Shown: positions 15,887 to 36,567 of the stretch, piece by piece
Position numbering within the stretch: the stretch's first letter is position 1
How the letters are laid out: the number at the start of each line of letters is the position of its first letter
Origin: a virus
Lineage: Duplodnaviria; Heunggongvirae; Uroviricota; Caudoviricetes
Direction: 5' to 3' (one strand)
Virus record (IMG/VR): IMGVR_UViG_2681813232_000007
Length of the DNA: 37,702 nt
Made by a program: the position numbers and the translations under genes
The notes under the pieces: generated by a model
What the model saw: only the letters and a program-made list of their open reading frames with translations
Database searches by the model: none
Told to the model about the DNA's origin: nothing

Positions 15887-17146
15887 ATGTTTAGATTATC
15901 TAGTGTCAAGATTGAAGGTTTTTGGGGAAGACTAAATGCATCATGTTCATTTAATGAAGATGTAAATATTATTATTGGTCGAAATGGGACCGGTAAAACA
16001 ACCTTTATGAATATTCTTCACTCAGTTCTGGCATTAGAACTCGAATCACTAAATGAGAATAGTTTTGATAATGTAACAATAAAAATAAAAGAAGGAAGCA
16101 AAACTAAAACAATAAAAGTTGTGAGTAAATTTGACATAACTAAAGCTTTGCCTACGTTTGAATATACAATTTCTAGAAAGAAATATATTATCAGATCCTT
16201 TGAAGATCGTAGACTACCTATATATATGAGGAGAAAATATCAGGAAGACGTTGAAAAACTTAAGTTAGAGTTAGATAAATTAGTTGCTTTATCTTCTCTA
16301 TCAGTTTACCGACTTAGAAGCGGTGAAGATTTTGAAATCAGAGACAAATATGGCTCAAAATTAATCAACCCTGTTGATTACCGATTAGAACAATTATTGC
16401 AGAACCTAACAAAATATCAACTTTATTTATCACAAAGAGCTCGTGATGTTTCTGCAATATTACAGAAAGAGGTTCTTGCTTCTATTCTTTATAGTAAAGA
16501 AGATGGTATCGATGACACATTTAACTTTTCTTTTGATAAAGAAAAAGAACGTAGAAATTTAATAGCTGCATATTCTCAGCTTGGAGCTTTTGATAGTGAT
16601 GTCAGAAAGAAGATTAACTTTCACGTTGAATCTATTGCCAAAACATTTGAAGAATTACGACTTGCAGAAAAAAATAACAGAAATATTTTAAATGTAGATT
16701 ACAGATCATTTGAGGCATTACGAAAGACGCAAAGAATTATAAAGATGTCTTTAAAATCCGAGGAGAAAATAAAAAACATATTTCTTCCTATAAATCTATT
16801 TTTAGAAACATTACATGAGTTCATAACCGATAAAAAATTTAATTTTATCTCCGGTGAGCTAGTAATAGAAAACGAGCATGGGCCGATTAGCCATAGTAAT
16901 TTATCGTCTGGTGAAAAACAGCTATTAATTCTTTTTATTGAAACTTTGCTACAGCAAAACAAACCTTTCATCTATCTTACTGATGAACCAGAATTATCGC
17001 TACATATTGCATGGCAACGAAAAATAATACCTGCAATCAAACAACTTAATCCTAATGCGCAAATTATCGCCGCTACGCATTCACCAGAAGTGGCTTCTAA
17101 ATATCGAAATGCAATCTTTGATATGGAGAAATTGGTTCATGGATGA
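15887..17146 (+). CDS. ABC-type ATPase, candidate anti-phage protein (AriA/AbiLi-like)
   Basis: 419 aa; Walker A GRNGTGKTT (residues 31-39), signature-like LSSGEKQ, Walker B-like FIYLTDEPELSLH; AAGGA Shine-Dalgarno upstream; strongly AT-rich compared with flanking phage genes. Confidence 0.7.
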   Translation: MFRLSSVKIEGFWGRLNASCSFNEDVNIIIGRNGTGKTTFMNILHSVLALELESLNENSFDNVTIKIKEGSKTKTIKVVSKFDITKALPTFEYTISRKKYIIRSFEDRRLPIYMRRKYQEDVEKLKLELDKLVALSSLSVYRLRSGEDFEIRDKYGSKLINPVDYRLEQLLQNLTKYQLYLSQRARDVSAILQKEVLASILYSKEDGIDDTFNFSFDKEKERRNLIAAYSQLGAFDSDVRKKINFHVESIAKTFEELRLAEKNNRNILNVDYRSFEALRKTQRIIKMSLKSEEKIKNIFLPINLFLETLHEFITDKKFNFISGELVIENEHGPISHSNLSSGEKQLLILFIETLLQQNKPFIYLTDEPELSLHIAWQRKIIPAIKQLNPNAQIIAATHSPEVASKYRNAIFDMEKLVHG

Positions 17147-17990
17147 TTTCCATTATTCTGCCGAAGCAGAAAATGTAATGAATTTATTTTACCAAGCTGA
17201 AGCCATGGTTTATGTTGAAGGCCCAGATGATATTTGCTTTTGGGAAATCATCTTTAATAAAGCTAGTTCATTAAAGGTTGAAATCAAAGATGTTGGCGGC
17301 TGTGAAGAATTAAAAAAATATATTGATAGAGTTACTGATGAAGATCTTCAAATTATAATTGCATGTGATGCAGACTTCACTACATTTGAAAATGAGGAAA
17401 ACGCTGATAGTCGCATTGTAAAAACTTATGGGCACTCCATCGAAAACACGTTTATTGACAAAACAGGCATATATAAGGCAATAAAAACTCTAGGAAAATT
17501 ACCTCAAAAGATAATGAACGATGTCAACGTCGATTCTTGGACAGAAGACTTTTATACCAAAATGGAACCCCTAATAAAACTTGATATATACAATCATATT
17601 TATAGAAAAGGCATTTCAGTTATTGGTGACAGTGCAGATCGTTTCATGAAATCTAGAAAATCAAATGAAATTTGCGAGCAAAAAATCACGAGTTACAAAA
17701 ACACCATCATTGAAAAATTAGGTGTGGAACCAGATAACATCGATTCATCTTTCAAATCAAAATCGATAGAATACAGAAAGTGGCTTAGAGGTCATTTTCT
17801 TTTTTCTGCAGTACATAGGTACATTAGCACAACTGCAGAAAAAAATGGAAAAAAAGTATCCTTATCATATGAATCATTATATTCCAATTTAATGAATACA
17901 TTTGAATCCAATTTTACCAATACTCATATTGAGTTTAATCATTACCACGAAAAAATTAAAGCCATAAATATGCCACACGAAATGAAATAA
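17139..17990 (+). CDS. DUF4435/TOPRIM-like putative nuclease, candidate anti-phage effector (AriB/AbiLii-like)
   Basis: start set at MDDFHY (ATG at 17139) overlapping the upstream stop as ATGGATGA; conserved acidic motifs YVEGPDD and IIACDADF consistent with a TOPRIM Glu plus DxD; AT-rich. Confidence 0.65.
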   Translation: MDDFHYSAEAENVMNLFYQAEAMVYVEGPDDICFWEIIFNKASSLKVEIKDVGGCEELKKYIDRVTDEDLQIIIACDADFTTFENEENADSRIVKTYGHSIENTFIDKTGIYKAIKTLGKLPQKIMNDVNVDSWTEDFYTKMEPLIKLDIYNHIYRKGISVIGDSADRFMKSRKSNEICEQKITSYKNTIIEKLGVEPDNIDSSFKSKSIEYRKWLRGHFLFSAVHRYISTTAEKNGKKVSLSYESLYSNLMNTFESNFTNTHIEFNHYHEKIKAINMPHEMK

Positions 17991-23962: not shown

Positions 23963-25729
23963 ATGAACACCACACTGACACCCGCAGATCTCGATCCCCG
24001 TCGGCAGGCCATGCTGCTGTACTTTCAGGGATACCGCGTAGCCCGCATTGCTGAAATGCTGGGCGAGAAAGTTGCAACCGTTCACAGCTGGAAAAAACGC
24101 GACAAGTGGGGTGACTATGGGCCGCTGGATCAGATGCAGCTCACCACCGCCGCACGCTACTGCCAGCTCATCATGAAGGAGCACAAAGAAGGGAAAGATT
24201 TCAAAGAGATTGACCTGCTGGCGCGCCAGTCGGAGCGCCACGCGCGGATCGGCAAGTTTAACAATGGCGGCAACGAAGCTGACTTAAACCCTAACGTCGC
24301 CAACCGCAACAAAGGCCCACGCCGTCAGCCTGAAAAGAATGTTTTCACCGATGAACAGATTGAGAAGCTGGAAGAAATTTTCCATTCCTCCATGTTCAAC
24401 TACCAGCGCCACTGGTGGGAAGCCGGAAAAACCAACCGCATCCGCAACCTGCTGAAGTCACGCCAGATCGGCGCGACCTTCTATTTTGCCCGTGAAGCCC
24501 TGATTGACGCCCTGCTTACCGGACGTAACCAGATTTTCCTTTCTGCCAGTAAGGCACAGGCCCACGTCTTTAAGCAGTACATCATCGACTTCGCCAAAGA
24601 AGTGGAGGTGGAGCTGAAAGGCGATCCGATGGTGCTTCCCAACGGGGCCACGCTTTACTTCCTCGGCACCAATGCCCGCACGGCCCAGAGTTACCACGGC
24701 AACCTGTATCTGGATGAATATTTCTGGATACCGAAATTCCAGGAGCTGCGCAAAGTGGCTTCCGGTATGGCTATTCACAAAAAATGGCGACAAACCTATT
24801 TTTCCACGCCATCCAGCCTGACACACAGTGCTTATCCGTTCTGGTCCGGTGCGCTGTTCAACCGTGGGCGCAACAAAGCCGATAAGGTGGACATCGACCT
24901 GTCCCACAGCAATCTGGCCCCCGGCCTGCTGTGCGCAGACGGGCAATACCGCCAGATAGTCACCGTGGAAGATGCGGTGCGCGGCGGCTGTAACCTGTTC
25001 GACCTTGACCAGTTGCGCATGGAGTACAGCCCGGACGAATACCAGAACCTGCTGATGTGCGAGTTTGTGGACGATCTCGCGTCCGTGTTCCCGCTCAGCG
25101 AGCTGCAGGCGTGCATGGTAGACAGCTGGGAAGTCTGGACTGACTTTCATGCACTGGCCCTGCGCCCGTTTGGCTGGCGCGAAGTATGGATCGGTTATGA
25201 CCCGGCGAAAGGTACGCAGAATGGCGACAGCGCCGGATGCGTGGTGGTGGCACCGCCAGCCGTGCCGGGCGGCAAGTTCCGCATTCTTGAGCGTCACCAG
25301 TGGCGCGGAATGGACTTTCGCGCCCAGGCTGACGCCATCAAAAAACTGACCGAACAGTACAACGTGACCTACATCGGCATCGACTCGACAGGTGTCGGCC
25401 ACGGGGTTTACGAGAACGTGAAAGCGTTTTTTCCAGCCGTCCGGGAGTTTGTCTACAACCCCAACGTTAAAAACGCCCTGGTACTCAAGGCCTACGACAT
25501 TATCAGTCACCGTCGTCTGGAGTTTGACGCCGGACACACCGACATAGCGCAGTCATTTATGGCAATCCGTCGCGCCACCACCGCCAGCGGCAACCGCCCA
25601 ACCTATGAAGCCAGCCGCAGCGAAGAAGCCAGCCATGCCGATCTGGCCTGGGCAACAATGCACGCACTGTTTAACGAACCGCTGCAGGGCGAATCCGCCA
25701 ATACCAGCAATATTGTGGAGATTTTTTGA
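23963..25729 (+). CDS. P: terminase large (ATPase) subunit P
   Basis: 588 aa, size and divergent position relative to O match P2 gpP. Confidence 0.9.
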   Translation: MNTTLTPADLDPRRQAMLLYFQGYRVARIAEMLGEKVATVHSWKKRDKWGDYGPLDQMQLTTAARYCQLIMKEHKEGKDFKEIDLLARQSERHARIGKFNNGGNEADLNPNVANRNKGPRRQPEKNVFTDEQIEKLEEIFHSSMFNYQRHWWEAGKTNRIRNLLKSRQIGATFYFAREALIDALLTGRNQIFLSASKAQAHVFKQYIIDFAKEVEVELKGDPMVLPNGATLYFLGTNARTAQSYHGNLYLDEYFWIPKFQELRKVASGMAIHKKWRQTYFSTPSSLTHSAYPFWSGALFNRGRNKADKVDIDLSHSNLAPGLLCADGQYRQIVTVEDAVRGGCNLFDLDQLRMEYSPDEYQNLLMCEFVDDLASVFPLSELQACMVDSWEVWTDFHALALRPFGWREVWIGYDPAKGTQNGDSAGCVVVAPPAVPGGKFRILERHQWRGMDFRAQADAIKKLTEQYNVTYIGIDSTGVGHGVYENVKAFFPAVREFVYNPNVKNALVLKAYDIISHRRLEFDAGHTDIAQSFMAIRRATTASGNRPTYEASRSEEASHADLAWATMHALFNEPLQGESANTSNIVEIF

Positions 25730-26763
25730 TGGGAAAGAGTAAGAAGAACCGCGCTGCGGCGACGAAACAGATCCAGCTTAAAAGTCAAACTACAGCCGAA
25801 GCATTCAGCTTCGGCGATCCCGTTCCTGTTCTGGACCGCCGAGAACTGCTGGATTATGTGGAATGCGTACAGATGGACCGTTGGTATGAGCCGCCCGTCA
25901 GCTTTGACGGACTGGCGCGCACCTTCCGCGCTGCCGTGCATCACAGTTCCCCGATTGCAGTAAAGTGCAACATTCTGACCAGTACCTATATCCCTCACCC
26001 GCTGCTCAGCCAGCAGGCTTTTTCACGTTTTGTGCAGGACTACCTGGTATTTGGTAACGCCTACCTGGAGAAACGCACGAACCGCTTCGGTGAAGTTATC
26101 GCCCTTGAGCCTGCCCTGGCAAAATATACCCGACGCGGGTTAGACCTGGATACCTACTGGTTTGTGCAATACGGTATGACAACCCAGCCATATCAGTTCA
26201 CGAAAGGCAGCATTTTTCATCTGATGGAACCAGATATTAATCAGGAGATCTACGGCCTGCCCGGCTATCTTTCTGCCATCCCATCCGCTTTGCTCAACGA
26301 GTCCGCCACGCTGTTCCGCCGCAAATATTACATTAACGGTAGTCATGCAGGCTTCATCATGTACATGACCGATGCCGCGCAGAACCAGGAGGATGTGAAC
26401 AACCTCCGCAATGCGATGAAAAGCGCCAAAGGGCCGGGCAACTTCCGCAACTTGTTTATGTACTCACCCAACGGAAAGAAAGACGGGATTCAGATCATCC
26501 CGCTGTCAGAGGTGGCGGCAAAAGATGAGTTTCTTAACATCAAGAACGTGAGCCGGGATGACATGATGGCAGCGCACCGTGTACCGCCGCAGATGATGGG
26601 GATTATGCCTAGTAATGTTGGCGGGTTTGGGGATGTTGAAAAGGCTAGTAAGGTTTTTGTCAGGAATGAGTTAATTCCGCTACAACACAGAATATCTGAA
26701 ATTAACTCATGGATTGGACTTAATGAAGAACTGGTTAAATTTACCTCATATGAATTAGATTAG
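25726..26763 (+). CDS. Q: portal protein Q
   Basis: 345 aa, size and position match P2 gpQ; overlaps P stop by 4 nt; the last ~40 codons are conspicuously AT-rich. Confidence 0.9.
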   Translation: MMGKSKKNRAAATKQIQLKSQTTAEAFSFGDPVPVLDRRELLDYVECVQMDRWYEPPVSFDGLARTFRAAVHHSSPIAVKCNILTSTYIPHPLLSQQAFSRFVQDYLVFGNAYLEKRTNRFGEVIALEPALAKYTRRGLDLDTYWFVQYGMTTQPYQFTKGSIFHLMEPDINQEIYGLPGYLSAIPSALLNESATLFRRKYYINGSHAGFIMYMTDAAQNQEDVNNLRNAMKSAKGPGNFRNLFMYSPNGKKDGIQIIPLSEVAAKDEFLNIKNVSRDDMMAAHRVPPQMMGIMPSNVGGFGDVEKASKVFVRNELIPLQHRISEINSWIGLNEELVKFTSYELD

Positions 26764-26814
26764 GCATATAGAAATGCACCTAACATCGAAAGTGAGATTA
26801 GGTGCAAATAATAA

Positions 26815-27969
26815 TCAGCTTATTTGACCTAATAATTCTTCCGCATATTTTTTATCACTATCCATCCGTTGCTGAACAGCATCCCTAAGATGCTCTTTCA
26901 ACTTATCAGGATAATTTTTACATGCATCAATCAATTTTGTTCGTAAAAGCTTAGCACCATTTACAATGGTGGCATAAGCTAAAGCATCAGCTAACTCCTT
27001 AACTTTCACATCATCAGTAATGATAGAAGGGATTGAAAAAACGTAATATTTCGCAACATAATTTTGCGTATACCAACTATCATATAACAATCCAATTAAA
27101 GCATCACCAAGATCACCTCTTCTTTTAAATTTGCTACCAAATGTATTACCCCATGTTCCTATAGCTCCTTTGGTCGCATCAGAATAGAAATCCAAATATC
27201 CTTTTTTGCACTCTTCGATGATTATATTTTCCATTCTAATTAAAACATCATCAGGAAGATTTCTCCATGCGCTCGGCTTAATTATTCTAAATACATTAGC
27301 AAACTCAACATTATTGCTAGCCTTGCGTAACTCATCACCTAGCAACCGCATTGCGGCTTTTTCTTCCTCTCCTGAAAAGCGTTGGTTTATTGCTTTGAAT
27401 ATAGAATCAATTTCCTTGGTTGGCCTTTCATTAAAGCGAGAAATTAAACTTTGGAAAAAATCTAGTAGTTTTTTTTCTGGAATTTGTGATATTAAAGCTT
27501 CTGCATAATCAGAATTATTTACAAAGTGAACCTCATAAATTCTTTCAAGAATTGCTGTGTAATCGAACTCAGCAACATCTCTTTTTAAATACTTAATAAA
27601 AGTATCCAACATGATCAATATTCTCATGCAGGAATCTTCTGTATCAGGGAAATTGTCATGTGTCCTTGGATTTCTTATACACTGATAGTAGCCTCTTAAT
27701 AGTGCTTCAAATCCGCGCTGTTCGTCCTGCTCTGATACAGATTGAAGACTATTAATTTGGATTCTAGGTGATTGTCCACCCAAAACAGTACCAACAAGCT
27801 GAGCCCCATCCCCTTCACATTGCCCTTTTTCACGCAGCAAAGTTGTTAGATATTTGGTTCCTGCAAGTATTGCATCCGAAAATTGGTTGTTTTCCAGCCT
27901 ATTACCAATCGCTTCAACTAATTCCGCATCGAAATTATTTGTATTAAAGTTATTTTTTACAAACATCAC
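26815..27969 (-). CDS. orphan cargo protein with N-terminal HEPN-like RNxxxH motif, candidate abortive-infection RNase
   Basis: 384 aa, AT-rich; motif IRNPRTH (R99-H104; codons 27658-27675); GGGGAG Shine-Dalgarno upstream of the ATG; sits between the portal gene and the cos-like site. Confidence 0.6.
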   Translation of the reverse strand: MMFVKNNFNTNNFDAELVEAIGNRLENNQFSDAILAGTKYLTTLLREKGQCEGDGAQLVGTVLGGQSPRIQINSLQSVSEQDEQRGFEALLRGYYQCIRNPRTHDNFPDTEDSCMRILIMLDTFIKYLKRDVAEFDYTAILERIYEVHFVNNSDYAEALISQIPEKKLLDFFQSLISRFNERPTKEIDSIFKAINQRFSGEEEKAAMRLLGDELRKASNNVEFANVFRIIKPSAWRNLPDDVLIRMENIIIEECKKGYLDFYSDATKGAIGTWGNTFGSKFKRRGDLGDALIGLLYDSWYTQNYVAKYYVFSIPSIITDDVKVKELADALAYATIVNGAKLLRTKLIDACKNYPDKLKEHLRDAVQQRMDSDKKYAEELLGQIS

Positions 27970-28052
27970 ACTCCCCTTTTTTTGAAAGGGTATTGTATTG
28001 AACCTTGTTAAGATTTCTCAGATAAGTATCACACTATCTCAAGTTGCGCGCG

Positions 28053-28071
28053 CTCGTATCCCCGCCACGCC
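28053..28071 (-). other. cos-like cohesive-end site (186/P2 type)
   Basis: minus strand reads GGCGTGGCGGGGATACGAG; the first 13 nt match the remembered 186 cohesive end GGCGTGGCGGGGA; located between Q and the tum-like operon as expected. Confidence 0.45.
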
Positions 28072-28275: not shown

Positions 28276-28509
28276 TTAATGCAGCCAGCTGTCGTCTTCC
28301 CACACCTTCTGCATAATTTTCATCACTTGTTTTCTTTCTTCGTCCAGTTGCAGTCCGGTTAGTTCCACACCGTTAGAGCTACCTTTGCGAATGCGAATTA
28401 CCGTTTTGGGATACAGGGGGCGCAGATTGCGGTAAAGCTCGGATTCAAGGGCGTCCAGGGTAGACTGGCTAATCTTCTGCTCTTTATCGATCATTATTTC
28501 AATGCGCAT
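28276..28509 (-). CDS. DinI-family protein (C-terminal module of a split Tum-like antirepressor)
   Basis: start set at MRIEIMIDKEQ (ATG at 28509, GAGGTG upstream); 77 aa, alignable by eye to E. coli DinI (MRIEV...WESADDW versus MRIEIM...WEDDSW). Confidence 0.8.
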   Translation of the reverse strand: MRIEIMIDKEQKISQSTLDALESELYRNLRPLYPKTVIRIRKGSSNGVELTGLQLDEERKQVMKIMQKVWEDDSWLH

Positions 28510-28861: not shown

Positions 28862-31273
28862 TTAATACAGGTTCCGCCACTGATCATCTTCTTGCAAACG
28901 CTGGTTCCGATAGAAGATACGCAGGCCTGCTCCTGACGGAATACTGCCTCCGCGAAGGAGTAAATCGACCTCTTTCTCGCTGCCATCAAATCCTCTGGAC
29001 TTCAGCTCATACACGAGCTGCAGTCGCTGATGGTCTGTAATTCGCTGTTTGTAGTCTTTACGCCGTTTCGGTTTCACCAGGCGTAACCTTGCAGCCAGTT
29101 CCCGGCGCTCTTTTTTGTTCATACTGTGCAGGTAATCGTGCAACTCCTTGTCATCCATGCTGGTAATGTCCGTTCTGGGGTCCCCATCAGCTGATTTATC
29201 TTTCTCCTGTTGGTTCAAATTTTCAGCAAGGGGACAGTTATTGCCACGAGTCCAAGGGGCGCAAGCGCCCTGGGCTGCCGCCTCCTGAACGTCAACGGCT
29301 TTACGAACCATTTTCCACTTCACTGCATGAGTGCAGATCTTGCCCTCTGCAATGGGTGACCAGATGCCATAAATACGAATGCCGTGATCGCCATAGGCGG
29401 TCGGCTCTTCGTTGATTTCATAAGCGGTTCTGATGAGGTGATATTTACGGGGAACCAGTACGCCGCCCTGCTTCATGATGTAGGTGGCAAAACAACCAGC
29501 ATCAGCAGCAGCCAGAATGGCATCAAGACGCGGGTTATCCAGTACCGGCGCACCTGCTTTTTTGTCACCCTGTTGCCTTGCCGCCTGACCAGCCAGCAAG
29601 CGAAGTTCACGGTAAGCCTGACGCCCCGGAATACCAAAGAAGCGGAATTGCTGAACACGATGCAGAGACGCCCAGGCATTCACGTATTCAGCGTTATCAC
29701 GCAGAGATTTACCCGTTTCCTTGCTGATCTCGCCAGCCAGACCACGACCGTCAATGTTCTTACTGATATATTTCGCGATGTAGCTTGTCGGCGTTCCTTT
29801 GCGCGGGTTAATCAACTCAGACTTAAAGCGCGGCCCAGTGTTATTGCCCAGCTCCTCGCGGTCTTCACGGATGGCAAACTTACGCAGTAATGCAGTGATG
29901 GCACGGCGGTCTTTTTTGCGCATGAAACACAACAGGTGCCAGTGAACTGTGCCATCATGATGCGGCTCAGCCACCCGCACGCCATACCAGCGCAACCCGG
30001 CTTTGTGCATCGCCTTACGAAATGCAGCAAACATGCCGACCAGATAATCGCTGCTTTGTCTTACCGTCGCGTTTGTCCAGGTCGGGTTTGGTCTGCCGTT
30101 ATTTAGCGTGGAATGGAAACGCGACGGACAGGTGATAGTGTAGAAAACGGCGCAGTCACCGCGCATTTCCGCGATAAGCTCCAGACCTTTAACACAGGCC
30201 ATCATCTCATTGCGGCGATGCGCAGGGTTGCTGCTGCTGGCGTTTACCACATCCTCCATGTCCAGCGTGTCGCCGTCTTCGTTCACCAGTTCATGAGAAC
30301 GGAAAAACTCCAGCGACTTACGGCGCTGCTCACGTTTATGCATCACGGCTTCATAGCTGACATAAGGAGATGCTTTTTTGCTGACCAGGCAAACAGCGCG
30401 CAACTGCTCTTCCCGCCATTCGCAACGCATCTTCCATAATTTCCGATACCACCAGTCGGCGCACAACATACGCGCCAGCGAACCCGGAATGAGTTCATAG
30501 GGCACGGGTTTACGGCGGTTTCTTTTCCGACGGAGTTGCTCAAACGCAGGTGGGATGACATCCAGACGCAGGGTTTCCGCTGCCACCTTTTCCCATGTCT
30601 TGCGGATTTCTTCTGGCTTAACGTCATCGGTGGCATACAAATCACCACAAGCTGCATCAAGGCACATACTCATATGCGCAGCTACCAGGGTGGACAGGCG
30701 TTTCACCTGATCCTGACTCATTTCAGGCAGGATCAGCAGGCCGTCCAGCCCTTCATGGCTTGCCATAAAGCGAAAAGATGCAGATAGCTGACTGTCGCGT
30801 ACATGCTCCAGTCGTTCCAGACATGGCTTAATCGTCTCACGTAAATAGCGGGAATAAGCCTTTGGCCTGCCCAGGCTGCTGAAGTATTCAATACGTTGCA
30901 TCAGCGGCTTGCTGATATTGGAAGGCTGGGCGTTGACGTCCGCCAGAATGACCATGTCTGAATTAAAACGCTGCTGCTCATGCGCCAGCTTTGCCCGGCT
31001 AATGAGCTTATCCTGCTCCATTTCGCGCTGGACAGGATCACGTGATTCATTAAAGAAATAACGCTCCCAGACCTGATCACTCAGTGCCTCGCGGCGCAAC
31101 TGTTCCTGCTCGTTATCGGCAGCGTACAGAGTGATCAGGTTTGAAAGCGTAGAAACCGGCGCAACTTCCGCCGGGTCCAGATAAGGGTTAATGGCCTTTT
31201 TCGGGCTGTTCCATGAGAATGCTGCGGCAGCCTCGTTAAAGCCGCAGCACTTGTTCATATCGGCATGACTCAT
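28862..31273 (-). CDS. A: replication initiation protein A (rolling-circle nicking endonuclease)
   Basis: 803 aa, size and position match P2/186 gpA; tandem His motif WHLLCF; start overlaps dam stop. Confidence 0.88.
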
Positions 31274-34273: not shown

Positions 34274-34870
34274 ATGTCAACATCAAAGTACCCAAGTGAG
34301 ATCAAAATAAATCCCAATAAAGGTGGTAAGGCTGCGATTGAGCGATTAGTCGAAGCCTATGGCTTTACGACACGACAGGCTTTAGCTGATCACTTGGAAG
34401 TATCAAAAAGCACACTAGCGAACAGGTATTTGCGGGATACATTTCCTGCTGACTGGATAATCCAATGTGCTCTTGAAACAGGAACCTCCCTCAAATGGTT
34501 AACTACCGGACAAGGCCTTAAGCAAAGCTCGCTGACAGCAGCTACAGAAGAGCTTGTTAAGTTTCGCCTTGCCGCAGGCAAAATGATTGAAGACGGTTCA
34601 TATGTCTTCGATTCATCATTTCTTCCTGCAAACCTTTCATCACCAATTGTTGTTCAGGATGGACTCGTCACATACATTTGTGATCAAAAATTTTCTGAAG
34701 TACTTGATGGAAACTGGTTAATCAATATCGACGGAACCTATTCCATTCGAAAAATCACAAGGCTTCCTAAAGGAATGATTAAAATTACAACAGCAGAGAA
34801 TAGCTTTGAATGTGCATTTTCTGATATTGAAGTGGTTGCTTGTATAAGAAGTACAATAGTCTCGAATTAA
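34274..34870 (+). CDS. cI: CI immunity repressor (186 CI type)
   Basis: 198 aa; N-terminal HTH and motifs EAYGF, CALETG..L.WL.TG.G shared with 186 CI by recall. Confidence 0.8.
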   Translation: MSTSKYPSEIKINPNKGGKAAIERLVEAYGFTTRQALADHLEVSKSTLANRYLRDTFPADWIIQCALETGTSLKWLTTGQGLKQSSLTAATEELVKFRLAAGKMIEDGSYVFDSSFLPANLSSPIVVQDGLVTYICDQKFSEVLDGNWLINIDGTYSIRKITRLPKGMIKITTAENSFECAFSDIEVVACIRSTIVSN

Positions 34871-34890: not shown

Positions 34891-36567
34891 ATGAATTCAT
34901 TTGCCATCGTTATACTCTTATTAGCATTTCTCGCCCCTGTTCTAGCTGTAATATTATTTAAACAAAGTAAAAAACACAAAGCGGCTATAGATAACCTGAC
35001 AGCTAACAACATAGCCCTTTCTAACCAACTGATTGAAAATCAAGAAAAACTAGCACAGACCGTACGAGAATTATCAGAGCTTGAAGGGCGAGCAGCACCA
35101 TTGTGGCAATACGAAGAATTGCACAGCGCAGTAATGGATGCAGAGAATAAGATAAAAAATGCGGACTCAATAGCCAAGCAAAAAATAGATGAAGCCCAAA
35201 TTAAGGCGGCTAAAACAGTAAACGAAGCAAATTATCAAGCTCAGATGACAATAAGCAACGCTAATAGCGAAGCTATAGCAATCACCAAAGACGCTCGCGA
35301 TGCACGCCTGAAAGCCAAAGAACGTCTTGATAATGCTAATAATAAAGCAAATGAGCTAATCTCAAATGCTAATGACAATGCAGTAAAAATTATTTCTGAT
35401 GCAGAAGAAAGAGCAAAGGAGATTGCTGGTTCAGCATATGAAGCTAAAGAGTTTGCAGAAAAATATGAAGCAGTTGCAAAATCAATGAAAAATAAAATTG
35501 AAGGTTATGGTGATGAATGGATCATCCCTAACCGTAGTGTACTTGATGAGCTGGCAGAAAATTATGAATTTACAGATGCAGGCAAGGAATTACAAAAAGC
35601 CAGAGAGTTAACCAAATCATTAATAAAAACTAATAAAGCTGCTTCGTGTGATTATGTTGAGCAAAACAGGCGTAATACTGCCATAAACTTTGTTTTGGAT
35701 GCCTTCAATGGAAGAGTTGACAGTATTTTATCAAAAGTCAAACACAACAATTTTGGAAAACTTTCCCAAGAAATAAAAGATGCATTTCAACTAGTAAATT
35801 ACAATGGCTCTGCCTTTAGGTCCGCAAAAATAAGTGACATCTATCTTCAGGCAAGACTCAACGAGCTAAAATGGGGTGTAGCAGTTAATGAAATTATGCT
35901 CGAAGAAAAAGAAGAGCAAAGAAGGATTAAAGAACAGCTTCGTGAAGAGGAAAGAGCTCGTAGAGAATATGAAAAAGCGATAAAAGAAGCTGAAAAAGAA
36001 GAAAAAGCTATTCAGCAAGCTATAAATAAAGCAACGAAAGAACTTATGCTTGCAAATGAAGAACAACGCTTAGCTTTAGAGCAAAAAATAGCTGAACTAC
36101 AGTTAAAATATGAAGAAGCTGAAGCTAAAAATCAACGAGCTATTTCTATGGCTCAACAAACCAGATCAGGCCACGTCTATATCATTAGTAATATTGGTTC
36201 ATTTGGCGAAGATGTATATAAAATTGGAATGACACGCCGCCTTGAACCACTTGATCGTGTTCGTGAACTCGGAGATGCTAGTGTTCCTTTTTCGTTCGAT
36301 GTTCATGCGATGATTTATAGTGATGATGCACCATCATTAGAAAACCATCTGCATAAAGTTTTCAACGAAAAGCAGGTCAATAAAATTAACTCACGAAAAG
36401 AGTTTTTTAACGTAAATTTAAAAGAAATCAAATCAGTTATTGAAGACATGAACATCAACGCCCACTGGACAATGTTTGCAGAGGCGAAAGAATATAGAGA
36501 GTCTCTATCTATTGAGCAGGAGCGCAAAGCAGCCACTTCCGCCAACGATGAACTACATGTTGCTTAG
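34891..36567 (+). CDS. membrane-anchored coiled-coil protein with C-terminal GIY-YIG-like (T5orf172-type) domain; candidate anti-phage cargo
   Basis: 558 aa, AT-rich; N-terminal transmembrane helix (FAIVILLLAFLAPVLAVILF), long Lys/Glu/Ala-rich helical region, C-terminal GHVYIISN...YKIGMTRRLEPLDRVREL; inserted between cI and int. Confidence 0.65.
   Translation: MNSFAIVILLLAFLAPVLAVILFKQSKKHKAAIDNLTANNIALSNQLIENQEKLAQTVRELSELEGRAAPLWQYEELHSAVMDAENKIKNADSIAKQKIDEAQIKAAKTVNEANYQAQMTISNANSEAIAITKDARDARLKAKERLDNANNKANELISNANDNAVKIISDAEERAKEIAGSAYEAKEFAEKYEAVAKSMKNKIEGYGDEWIIPNRSVLDELAENYEFTDAGKELQKARELTKSLIKTNKAASCDYVEQNRRNTAINFVLDAFNGRVDSILSKVKHNNFGKLSQEIKDAFQLVNYNGSAFRSAKISDIYLQARLNELKWGVAVNEIMLEEKEEQRRIKEQLREEERARREYEKAIKEAEKEEKAIQQAINKATKELMLANEEQRLALEQKIAELQLKYEEAEAKNQRAISMAQQTRSGHVYIISNIGSFGEDVYKIGMTRRLEPLDRVRELGDASVPFSFDVHAMIYSDDAPSLENHLHKVFNEKQVNKINSRKEFFNVNLKEIKSVIEDMNINAHWTMFAEAKEYRESLSIEQERKAATSANDELHVA

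Follow-up and report, generated by a model that had tools for sequence, protein, structure and literature searches.

A lone HEPN gene in the gpA-gpQ hotspot of a P2-like Escherichia coli prophage: a candidate single-protein anti-phage module whose C-terminal domain recurs with kinase and CHAT effectors

What might a solitary, AT-rich gene do beside the cos site of a P2-like prophage? We addressed this question for a prophage of Escherichia coli held in IMG/VR virus record IMGVR_UViG_2681813232_000007, a stretch of 37,702 nucleotides (nt) that we refer to as the window. The gene in question, on the minus strand at 26815..27966, encodes a protein of 383 amino acids (aa) with an N-terminal HEPN domain and lies between the portal gene Q and a cos-like site. 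A preliminary description, made from the sequence alone, had regarded it as an orphan and possibly undescribed. We consider it reasonably probable that the gene is a self-contained, single-protein anti-phage defense module, carried as moron cargo in the cos-proximal gpA-gpQ hotspot. The gene itself is already annotated and has been catalogued as a hotspot candidate; the new element of our analysis is its C-terminal domain, which occurs with exchangeable effectors.

Judged by its sequence, the N-terminal domain is HEPN, as had been proposed. Residues 12–126 (27589..27933, minus strand) matched positions 2–117 of the 119 positions of the Pfam profile PF09509, Hypoth_Ymh, with 82.4 bits (curated cutoff, 25; E = 2.9e-23), and the TIGR02391 profile scored 44.8 bits against its curated cutoff of 39.45. 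The HEPN RNase signature Rx4H is present as R98-N-P-R-T-H103 (27658..27675, minus strand). The IRNPRTH motif noted in the preliminary description was thus correctly recognized, whereas its numbering, R99 and H104, was one too high. In an alignment of 32 full-length homologs (34–92% identity), R98, N99, R101, and H103 were invariant, so that the motif is no chance hexapeptide. The AlphaFold2 (AF2) model is all-alpha and shows the up-and-down bundle expected of a HEPN domain, with the motif between helix 77–97 and helix 110–128 and hence before the last core helix. The Ymh family has been placed in the HEPN superfamily with a conserved Rx4-6H and scored as keeping the catalytic motif (Anantharaman et al. 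2013, PMC3710099). The homes suggested earlier for the protein, Abi_2 (AbiD/AbiF), AbiU2, and RnlA/LsoA, gave no profile match, as a Pfam scan down to E = 10 returned only Hypoth_Ymh and noise; weak Pfam matches to EnY2, MauJ, DUF937, and PUF_NOP9 stayed under their cutoffs and did not recur in other members of the family. In PADLOC, only PD-Lambda-3_B and Aga_HEPN matched, and both aligned over the HEPN part only.

Some HEPN families are non-catalytic (PMC3710099), and of the two HEPN structures that matched best, one was the HEPN domain of sacsin; both points would suit a non-enzymatic protein whose domain binds a ligand or RNA or serves regulation, as in MtlR or sacsin-type proteins. We regard this as very unlikely, given that R98, N99, and H103 do not vary over the whole range of identities, that the family was scored with its catalytic motif conserved, and that sibling proteins described below have enzymes in the same place, namely a kinase with an HxDLHxxN motif or a CHAT protease.

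The locus is built as the preliminary description had reported, with a single AT-rich gene between the portal gene and a cos-like site, convergent with Q. The GC content is 0.34–0.39 across the HEPN gene and ~0.55 in the flanking phage backbone. Q (25726..26763, plus strand) forms the left boundary of the hotspot, and 51 bp separate its stop from that of the HEPN gene (26815–26817, minus strand). The open reading frame (ORF) list places the HEPN frame at 26815..27969, which yields the 384 aa given earlier if GTG is counted as the start. That length holds from the GTG but not from the start used elsewhere: the RefSeq entry for the identical locus, WP_000497736.1 (“TIGR02391 family protein”), begins at the ATG at 27966, and this entry and every full-length homolog share the N-terminus MF.K, from which we conclude that the ATG is the start and the product 383 aa long, close to the usual ~383 aa of the homologs. 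The region is 100% identical to that of E. coli EC11 and many further strains. On its 5′ side, ~90 bp from the ATG, lies the cos-like site (28053..28071, minus strand); its core, GGCGTGGCGGGGA at 28059–28071, was the single match in the window, where 0 were expected by chance, and it corresponds to GGCGAGGCGGGGAAAGCAC of P2 cosL in an alignment made by eye to the P2 annotation. Similarity to other P2-like phages picks up again at ~28043. The cargo cassette therefore extends over ~26764–28042, ~1.28 kb, and contains exactly one gene; a second would fit neither in the 51-bp 3′ spacer nor in the ~75-bp 5′ leader.

The gpA-gpQ interval is a defense hotspot of P2-like phages, whose occupants include old/tin, retrons, DUF4238, DprA-PRTase, and TIR+TM (Rousset et al. 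2022, PMC9122126). The window reproduces its arrangement in the order Q, HEPN gene, cos-like site, DinI-like gene (28276–28509), and the replication endonuclease gene gpA (28862..31273, minus strand), the right boundary; a 62-aa ORF also sits between cos and gpA. The lone gene thus does occupy a phage-end cargo site, as had been supposed, and the site is a published one. So is the gene: Table S5A of that study lists WP_000497736 (for example, in strain CFT073), and Table S5B contains the exact sequence as system 31, “Hypoth_Ymh”, a “Putative nuclease” with 118 occurrences. Because the gene was annotated and catalogued in this way, the preliminary description overstated its novelty. It shares slot and cargo signature with the validated hotspot systems, to whose domain content its own is unrelated (PMC9122126).

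We then considered the part of the protein that follows the HEPN domain. Residues 135–383 (26818..27564, minus strand) are modeled as an all-alpha repeat domain with one beta-hairpin, at a predicted local distance difference test score (pLDDT) of ~90–96. Profile scans found no Pfam, PADLOC, or PHROGs family that matches it. A Foldseek search with the full model against the PDB returned nothing below E = 0.001, only generic ARM/HEAT/TOG/PUF-like solenoids; the structure search against BFVD viral structures gave no significant match, and sequence and profile searches of PDB chain sequences gave noise only. Genome scans with the family alignment found loci that match the C-terminal half only. The ORFs at these loci encode ~448-aa proteins with an N-terminal Pfam Pkinase domain (E = 1e-15 to 1e-21). 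BLASTP aligned residues 139–357 of the window protein with the C-terminus of one such kinase protein, P0041, at E = 2e-21 and 27% identity, and nine positions (W234, E246, G256, G270, W298, Q301, N302, N336, and P353 in window numbering) are invariant in both the HEPN and the kinase groups.

When the C-terminal profile alone was run against 1.84 billion representatives, clustered at 50% identity, it matched 528 clusters at E ≤ 0.001, of which 393 reached E ≤ 1e-10. Architectures were read among the best 150 of the 528 clusters. Those listed comprised the HEPN form, with a median of 383 aa; the kinase form, with many clusters and a median of 449 aa; and a CHAT form, represented by one 695-aa protein, P0220 (locus L034, 8001–10088), which unites a CHAT protease domain (E = 3e-31), a coiled coil rich in Q, E, and L, and a C-terminal domain of divergent sequence. 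Matches without a Pfam domain in the first search were considered as a further architecture; the five that were read (P0061, P0048, P0071, P0106, and P0092) turned out to be N-terminally truncated kinase forms. Since the same domain is fused to HEPN, kinase, and CHAT domains, one non-catalytic domain is combined with three enzymes. The kinase-fused siblings, for example those at L013 7326–8672, L017 7317–8666, L025 7329–8675, and L029 10001–11347, have a short kinase domain with HGDLHxxN (HxDLHxxN) and with DIL replacing DFG; this ~449-aa family appears to be uncharacterized. Its members match the PADLOC models PD-T4-6, which represents single-protein Ser/Thr kinase defenses, and mad6 over the kinase lobe, with E values down to 4e-27, which suggests that they are defense kinases. 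The PD-T4-6 match ends at about residue 143 and the C-terminal domain lies outside every PD-T4-6 model, while the window protein has no kinase. The HEPN part was better conserved than the C-terminal part in 99.6% of pairs (mean pairwise identity 64% versus 51.5%), and conservation within the HEPN form was lowest at residues 161–220. Weaker C-terminal conservation is what one would expect if the C-terminal domain tracks variable targets.

Among 5426 complete E. coli genomes, 51 contain the full gene, and every match listed places it between the portal gene and the DinI gene; as 1278 E. coli genomes match the flanks, it is present in them only patchily. Two phage records carry it, Klebsiella phage Kp4865-2 and Escherichia phage vB_EcoM-813R9. 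Full-length homologs fall into 34 clusters, nearly all of 382–389 aa, from Klebsiella (whose allele is 92% identical to that of E. coli), Vibrio, Aeromonas, Marinomonas, Sulfurovum, Desulfovibrio, and metagenomes; remoter relatives occur in Acidobacteriota, Bacillota, Latescibacterota, and others, and relatives are also found in IMG/VR viral contigs. With these homologs, and the 528 clusters that have the C-terminal domain, the protein is not the orphan it was thought to be. In Aeromonas dhakensis the homolog lies in a lambdoid prophage, antisense to early genes. A function for the phage itself, in lytic-cycle RNA processing, in interference with P4-type satellites, or in counter-defense, would fit a gene that is carried by induced or isolated phages and that adjoins cos, the sole region common to P2 and P4 (PMC9122126). 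We nevertheless give such a function little credence, since the gene is rare both among the flank-matching E. coli genomes (51/1278) and among hotspot loci, of which system 31 occupies 118 of 18,150 (PMC9122126), its base composition is foreign, and its homologs extend to lambdoid prophages, non-phage islands, and very distant phyla.

Homologs do occur in defense-island contexts, the absence of which the preliminary description had named as evidence against its proposal. The Sulfurovum homolog adjoins a PDC-M36A-like gene, with Septu PtuA/PtuB ~5 kb away, and another homolog lies in an island with DUF4145, GIY-YIG, ImmA/IrrE-HTH, and BilD-like genes. DefensePredictor tables, likewise in favor of defense, contain clusters called “TIGR02391 family protein”. 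Among the kinase siblings, one from Pseudomonas (L029) adjoins a DUF4145 HEPN gene where a P2-like tail cluster ends, and one is in a viral contig. The only neighbor match across loci was a phage protein of 122–145 aa, 52% identical between L002 (4635–5072) and L025 (4366–4734); it is common to an Aeromonas prophage with the HEPN form and a viral contig with the kinase form, and thus related phages may carry either version.

Other surroundings were of a more general kind. The homolog P0015 (L028, 1–7300) belongs to a series of short genes on one strand, spaced ~100 bp apart, in which the stop codons at 1028, 3217, and 5857 precede a CTAACAAAC-like motif; from its sequence this array looks like an integron cassette array. 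No link between the family and Esos, which Vibrio cholerae carries as a HEPN-like integron cassette, was found in the published material on Esos. In Aeromonas (L002/L003, 986–2685) and Pseudomonas (L029, 13525–15220), family members have UmuD/UmuC-type genes (Peptidase_S24 plus IMS) no more than a few kb away; in Sulfurovum (L026, 3573–4838) it is IMS alone that lies this near. This proximity to UmuDC in three unrelated hosts may simply reflect shared mobile-element cargo.

The preliminary description had advised a search for co-occurring antitoxin-like ORFs in homologous loci. In 20 loci, no neighboring ORF was conserved within 3 kb on either side, indicating that the HEPN gene travels alone. 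This result bears on the possibility that the protein is a cis-autoinhibited toxin or addiction module, whose benefit would be maintenance of the prophage or island, or growth arrest induced by stress. HEPN domains are common as toxins of toxin–antitoxin systems (PMC3710099). The solo gene is also found on mobile elements that include integron-like arrays, where such modules are frequent, and the UmuDC genes near three unrelated members indicate generic mobile-element cargo. The locus has nothing of the HEPN-MNT type of pair, in which an antitoxin is adjacent: the cassette has no second ORF, and the 20 loci revealed no antitoxin-like partner. In addition, a 250-residue domain shared with kinase and CHAT effectors suits a sensor better than an antitoxin, and the slot otherwise holds validated anti-phage systems. 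An addiction role is, for these reasons, unlikely in our view.

A Shine–Dalgarno sequence, GGGGAG, was read at 27973–27978 (minus strand), and a consensus scan found a promoter-like site (9/12 matches) at 27992..28021 (minus strand), 26 nt upstream of the ATG, in which an 18-nt spacer separates CTGAGA from TACAAT. An imperfect 12-nt inverted repeat at 27968–27996 (83% complementary, 5-nt gap) overlaps the Shine–Dalgarno sequence and the promoter-like −10 element; if transcribed, it could hide the ribosome-binding site. In the gap where Q and the HEPN gene converge, a repeat search found a 9-bp perfect inverted repeat, TGCACCTAA / TTAGGTGCA, with a 14-nt loop (26775..26806). It occupies a position equivalent to that of the P2 terminator tQ, and we infer that it is a candidate bidirectional terminator; the terminator scan overlooked it because its loop exceeds 8 nt.

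The inverted repeat over the ribosome-binding site might be taken as a sign that the protein is one part of a multi-component system, whose partner could be, for example, a tiny ORF, a small RNA, or some gene in another part of the prophage, and the closest PADLOC model, PD-Lambda-3_B, does come from a two-gene system. Against a hidden partner, the non-coding DNA of the cassette amounts to 51 bp plus ~75 bp, the 20 loci have no neighbor in common, and the gene moves unaccompanied among P2-like phages, lambdoid phages, and the integron-like array; we consider such a partner highly improbable. All four alternatives that we have weighed are less likely than single-protein defense.

How, then, would a single protein of this kind act? 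We infer that it has RNase activity, an anti-phage phenotype with an abortive outcome, and a C-terminal sensor with a phage-derived trigger, and that these might be combined as follows. The Ymh-family HEPN domain would be the effector, a metal-independent RNase, whose active site would arise from pairing of the R98-x4-H103 motifs of two HEPN domains; HEPN active sites are known to assemble across a dimer (PMC3710099). The C-terminal helical-repeat domain of 250 residues would be the sensor or regulator, keeping the enzyme off in the lysogen. Upon infection, it would recognize a component of the infecting phage, most likely a protein, and the oligomeric arrangement would shift, making the HEPN site competent. 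Cleavage of RNA (tRNA, rRNA, or mRNA) would then halt translation and abort the infection. Kinases and caspase-like proteases, too, are commonly activated by pairing. If the switch worked by induced proximity, this would account for a C-terminal domain common to HEPN, kinase, and CHAT effectors. More tentatively, and with rather more doubt than confidence, we suggest that this domain is an undescribed trigger-sensing or oligomerizing module, widespread with at least 393 clusters at E ≤ 1e-10, that defines single-protein immune sensors without an NTPase, in which it would induce proximity of a HEPN RNase, a minimal Ser/Thr-type kinase, or a CHAT caspase-like protease, each of which would have to pair in order to fire.

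We compared the protein with known systems. To the Ymh family it is related by profile scores above the cutoffs, the RNxxxH motif, and an all-alpha HEPN-like fold. Described Ymh proteins are solo or have pMORC, AbiJ-NTD1, or AbiTii N-terminal to the HEPN domain, whereas here the HEPN domain is N-terminal and precedes a 250-residue helical domain that is not listed there (PMC3710099). PD-Lambda-3 (Vassallo et al. 2022; PDLC03987/03988), the best PADLOC match (E = 2.4e-14), has a B protein with a Ymh-type HEPN domain, but the match is limited to the HEPN part, at profile positions 138–258 of 270. PD-Lambda-3 consists of two genes and has its HEPN domain at the C-terminus, while the window locus contains neither an A gene nor the N-terminal region of B, and thus not the full-length B protein. 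Avs/NLR-like and AbiJ-NTD-type sensors follow the same logic of exchangeable effectors, which the window protein and its siblings also display; the resemblance is one of logic only, and the window protein has no NTPase or STAND module.

Two families provide closer functional parallels. HepS of the Salmonella prophage Gifsy-1 is a “HEPN solo” abortive-infection protein; it is an inactive oligomer until a phage structural protein activates it, upon which it cleaves tRNA, and it served as the template for the mechanism proposed here (PMC13043305). The HepS type is characterized by a tetramer, by a tail-tip protein as activator, and by cleavage in the tRNA anticodon. Like the window protein, HepS is a single, constitutively tolerated prophage HEPN protein in an accessory slot without a partner gene, and its Rx4H motif lies at R100-H105, compared with R98-H103. 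HepS homologs are defined, however, as shorter than 250 aa and free of an extra domain (PMC13043305), and the window protein, with 383 aa and an additional domain of ~250 residues, falls outside that definition. We found no candidate with the reported HepS features in the Gifsy-1 record of strain LT2. Tha-1 and Tha-2 of Staphylococcus aureus prophages are triggered by tail proteins of the incoming phage in an abortive-infection-like manner and are, like the window protein, phage-encoded single proteins that combine a HEPN RNase with a domain of unknown fold (PMC11087260). The Tha proteins belong to another host phylum, have their HEPN domain at the C-terminus (residues 184–296 of 301), and are poorly predicted in their N-terminal part, whereas the window protein has the reverse domain order and a confidently predicted helical repeat as its non-HEPN part. 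By these definitions it belongs to neither the HepS nor the Tha family. Both nevertheless serve as precedents in that lone prophage HEPN proteins can be activated by phage structural proteins.

Several points weigh against a defense function or against the roles assigned to the domains. The protein is not named among the active systems in the hotspot study, and five cloned hotspot systems, which may include system 31, were inactive (PMC9122126). In the literature searched, there was no functional test of the protein or of any full-length homolog. No paper citing the accession WP_000497736 was found, and the names TIGR02391 and Ymh appeared only in the 2013 HEPN survey, its 2012 companion review, and supplementary tables. 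Some contexts of the homologs are not obviously defense islands. As to the domains, the sensor role is argued from the logic of the architecture, because the structural matches were only to generic alpha-solenoids, and the placement of the HEPN and C-terminal domains relative to each other is uncertain because the full-length model has a predicted template modeling score (pTM) of 0.67 despite its pLDDT of 91. The CHAT fusion is known from a single representative cluster, and the neighbors of P0220 (TerD, DUF29, and Uma2) are not clearly defense genes. Finally, the promoter call is weak, since such sites in the region are not above shuffle expectation.

The rest of the prophage speaks in favor of a defense role. 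Upstream of Q lies the terminase gene P (23963–25729, plus strand). A PARIS-like AriA/AriB pair (15887–17990, plus strand) forms an AT-rich island, with a GC content of ~0.30, among the tail genes at a Z/fun-type cargo site; it encodes an AriA-like ATPase of 419 aa (PADLOC E = 5.7e-40) and an overlapping AriB-like protein of 311 aa (E = 2.8e-24). A further AT-rich gene at 34891–36567 (plus strand) encodes a 558-aa protein that matches PD-Lambda-1 (E = 3e-120), with a CI-like repressor gene on one side (34274–34870) and the integrase gene on the other (from 36650 to the window end). Each of the three islands of foreign composition in the prophage occupies a known P2 cargo site, and two of the three are recognized defense systems.

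Even should the prediction fail, a catalogued cargo gene of the hotspot remains. If the prediction is true, a one-gene, 1.15-kb defense lies outside the reach of current detection tools, as PADLOC finds only a partial domain match; and since the gene is present in prophages of uropathogenic and livestock E. coli and of Klebsiella, it would affect host range in phage therapy. Should the C-terminal domain indeed be a sensor, the family would have a tractable founding member in the E. coli P2 version. The same putative sensor, connected here to an RNase and elsewhere to a kinase or a protease, would constitute a natural experiment that could show how one recognition module fires different proximity-activated effectors, and which phage component it recognizes.

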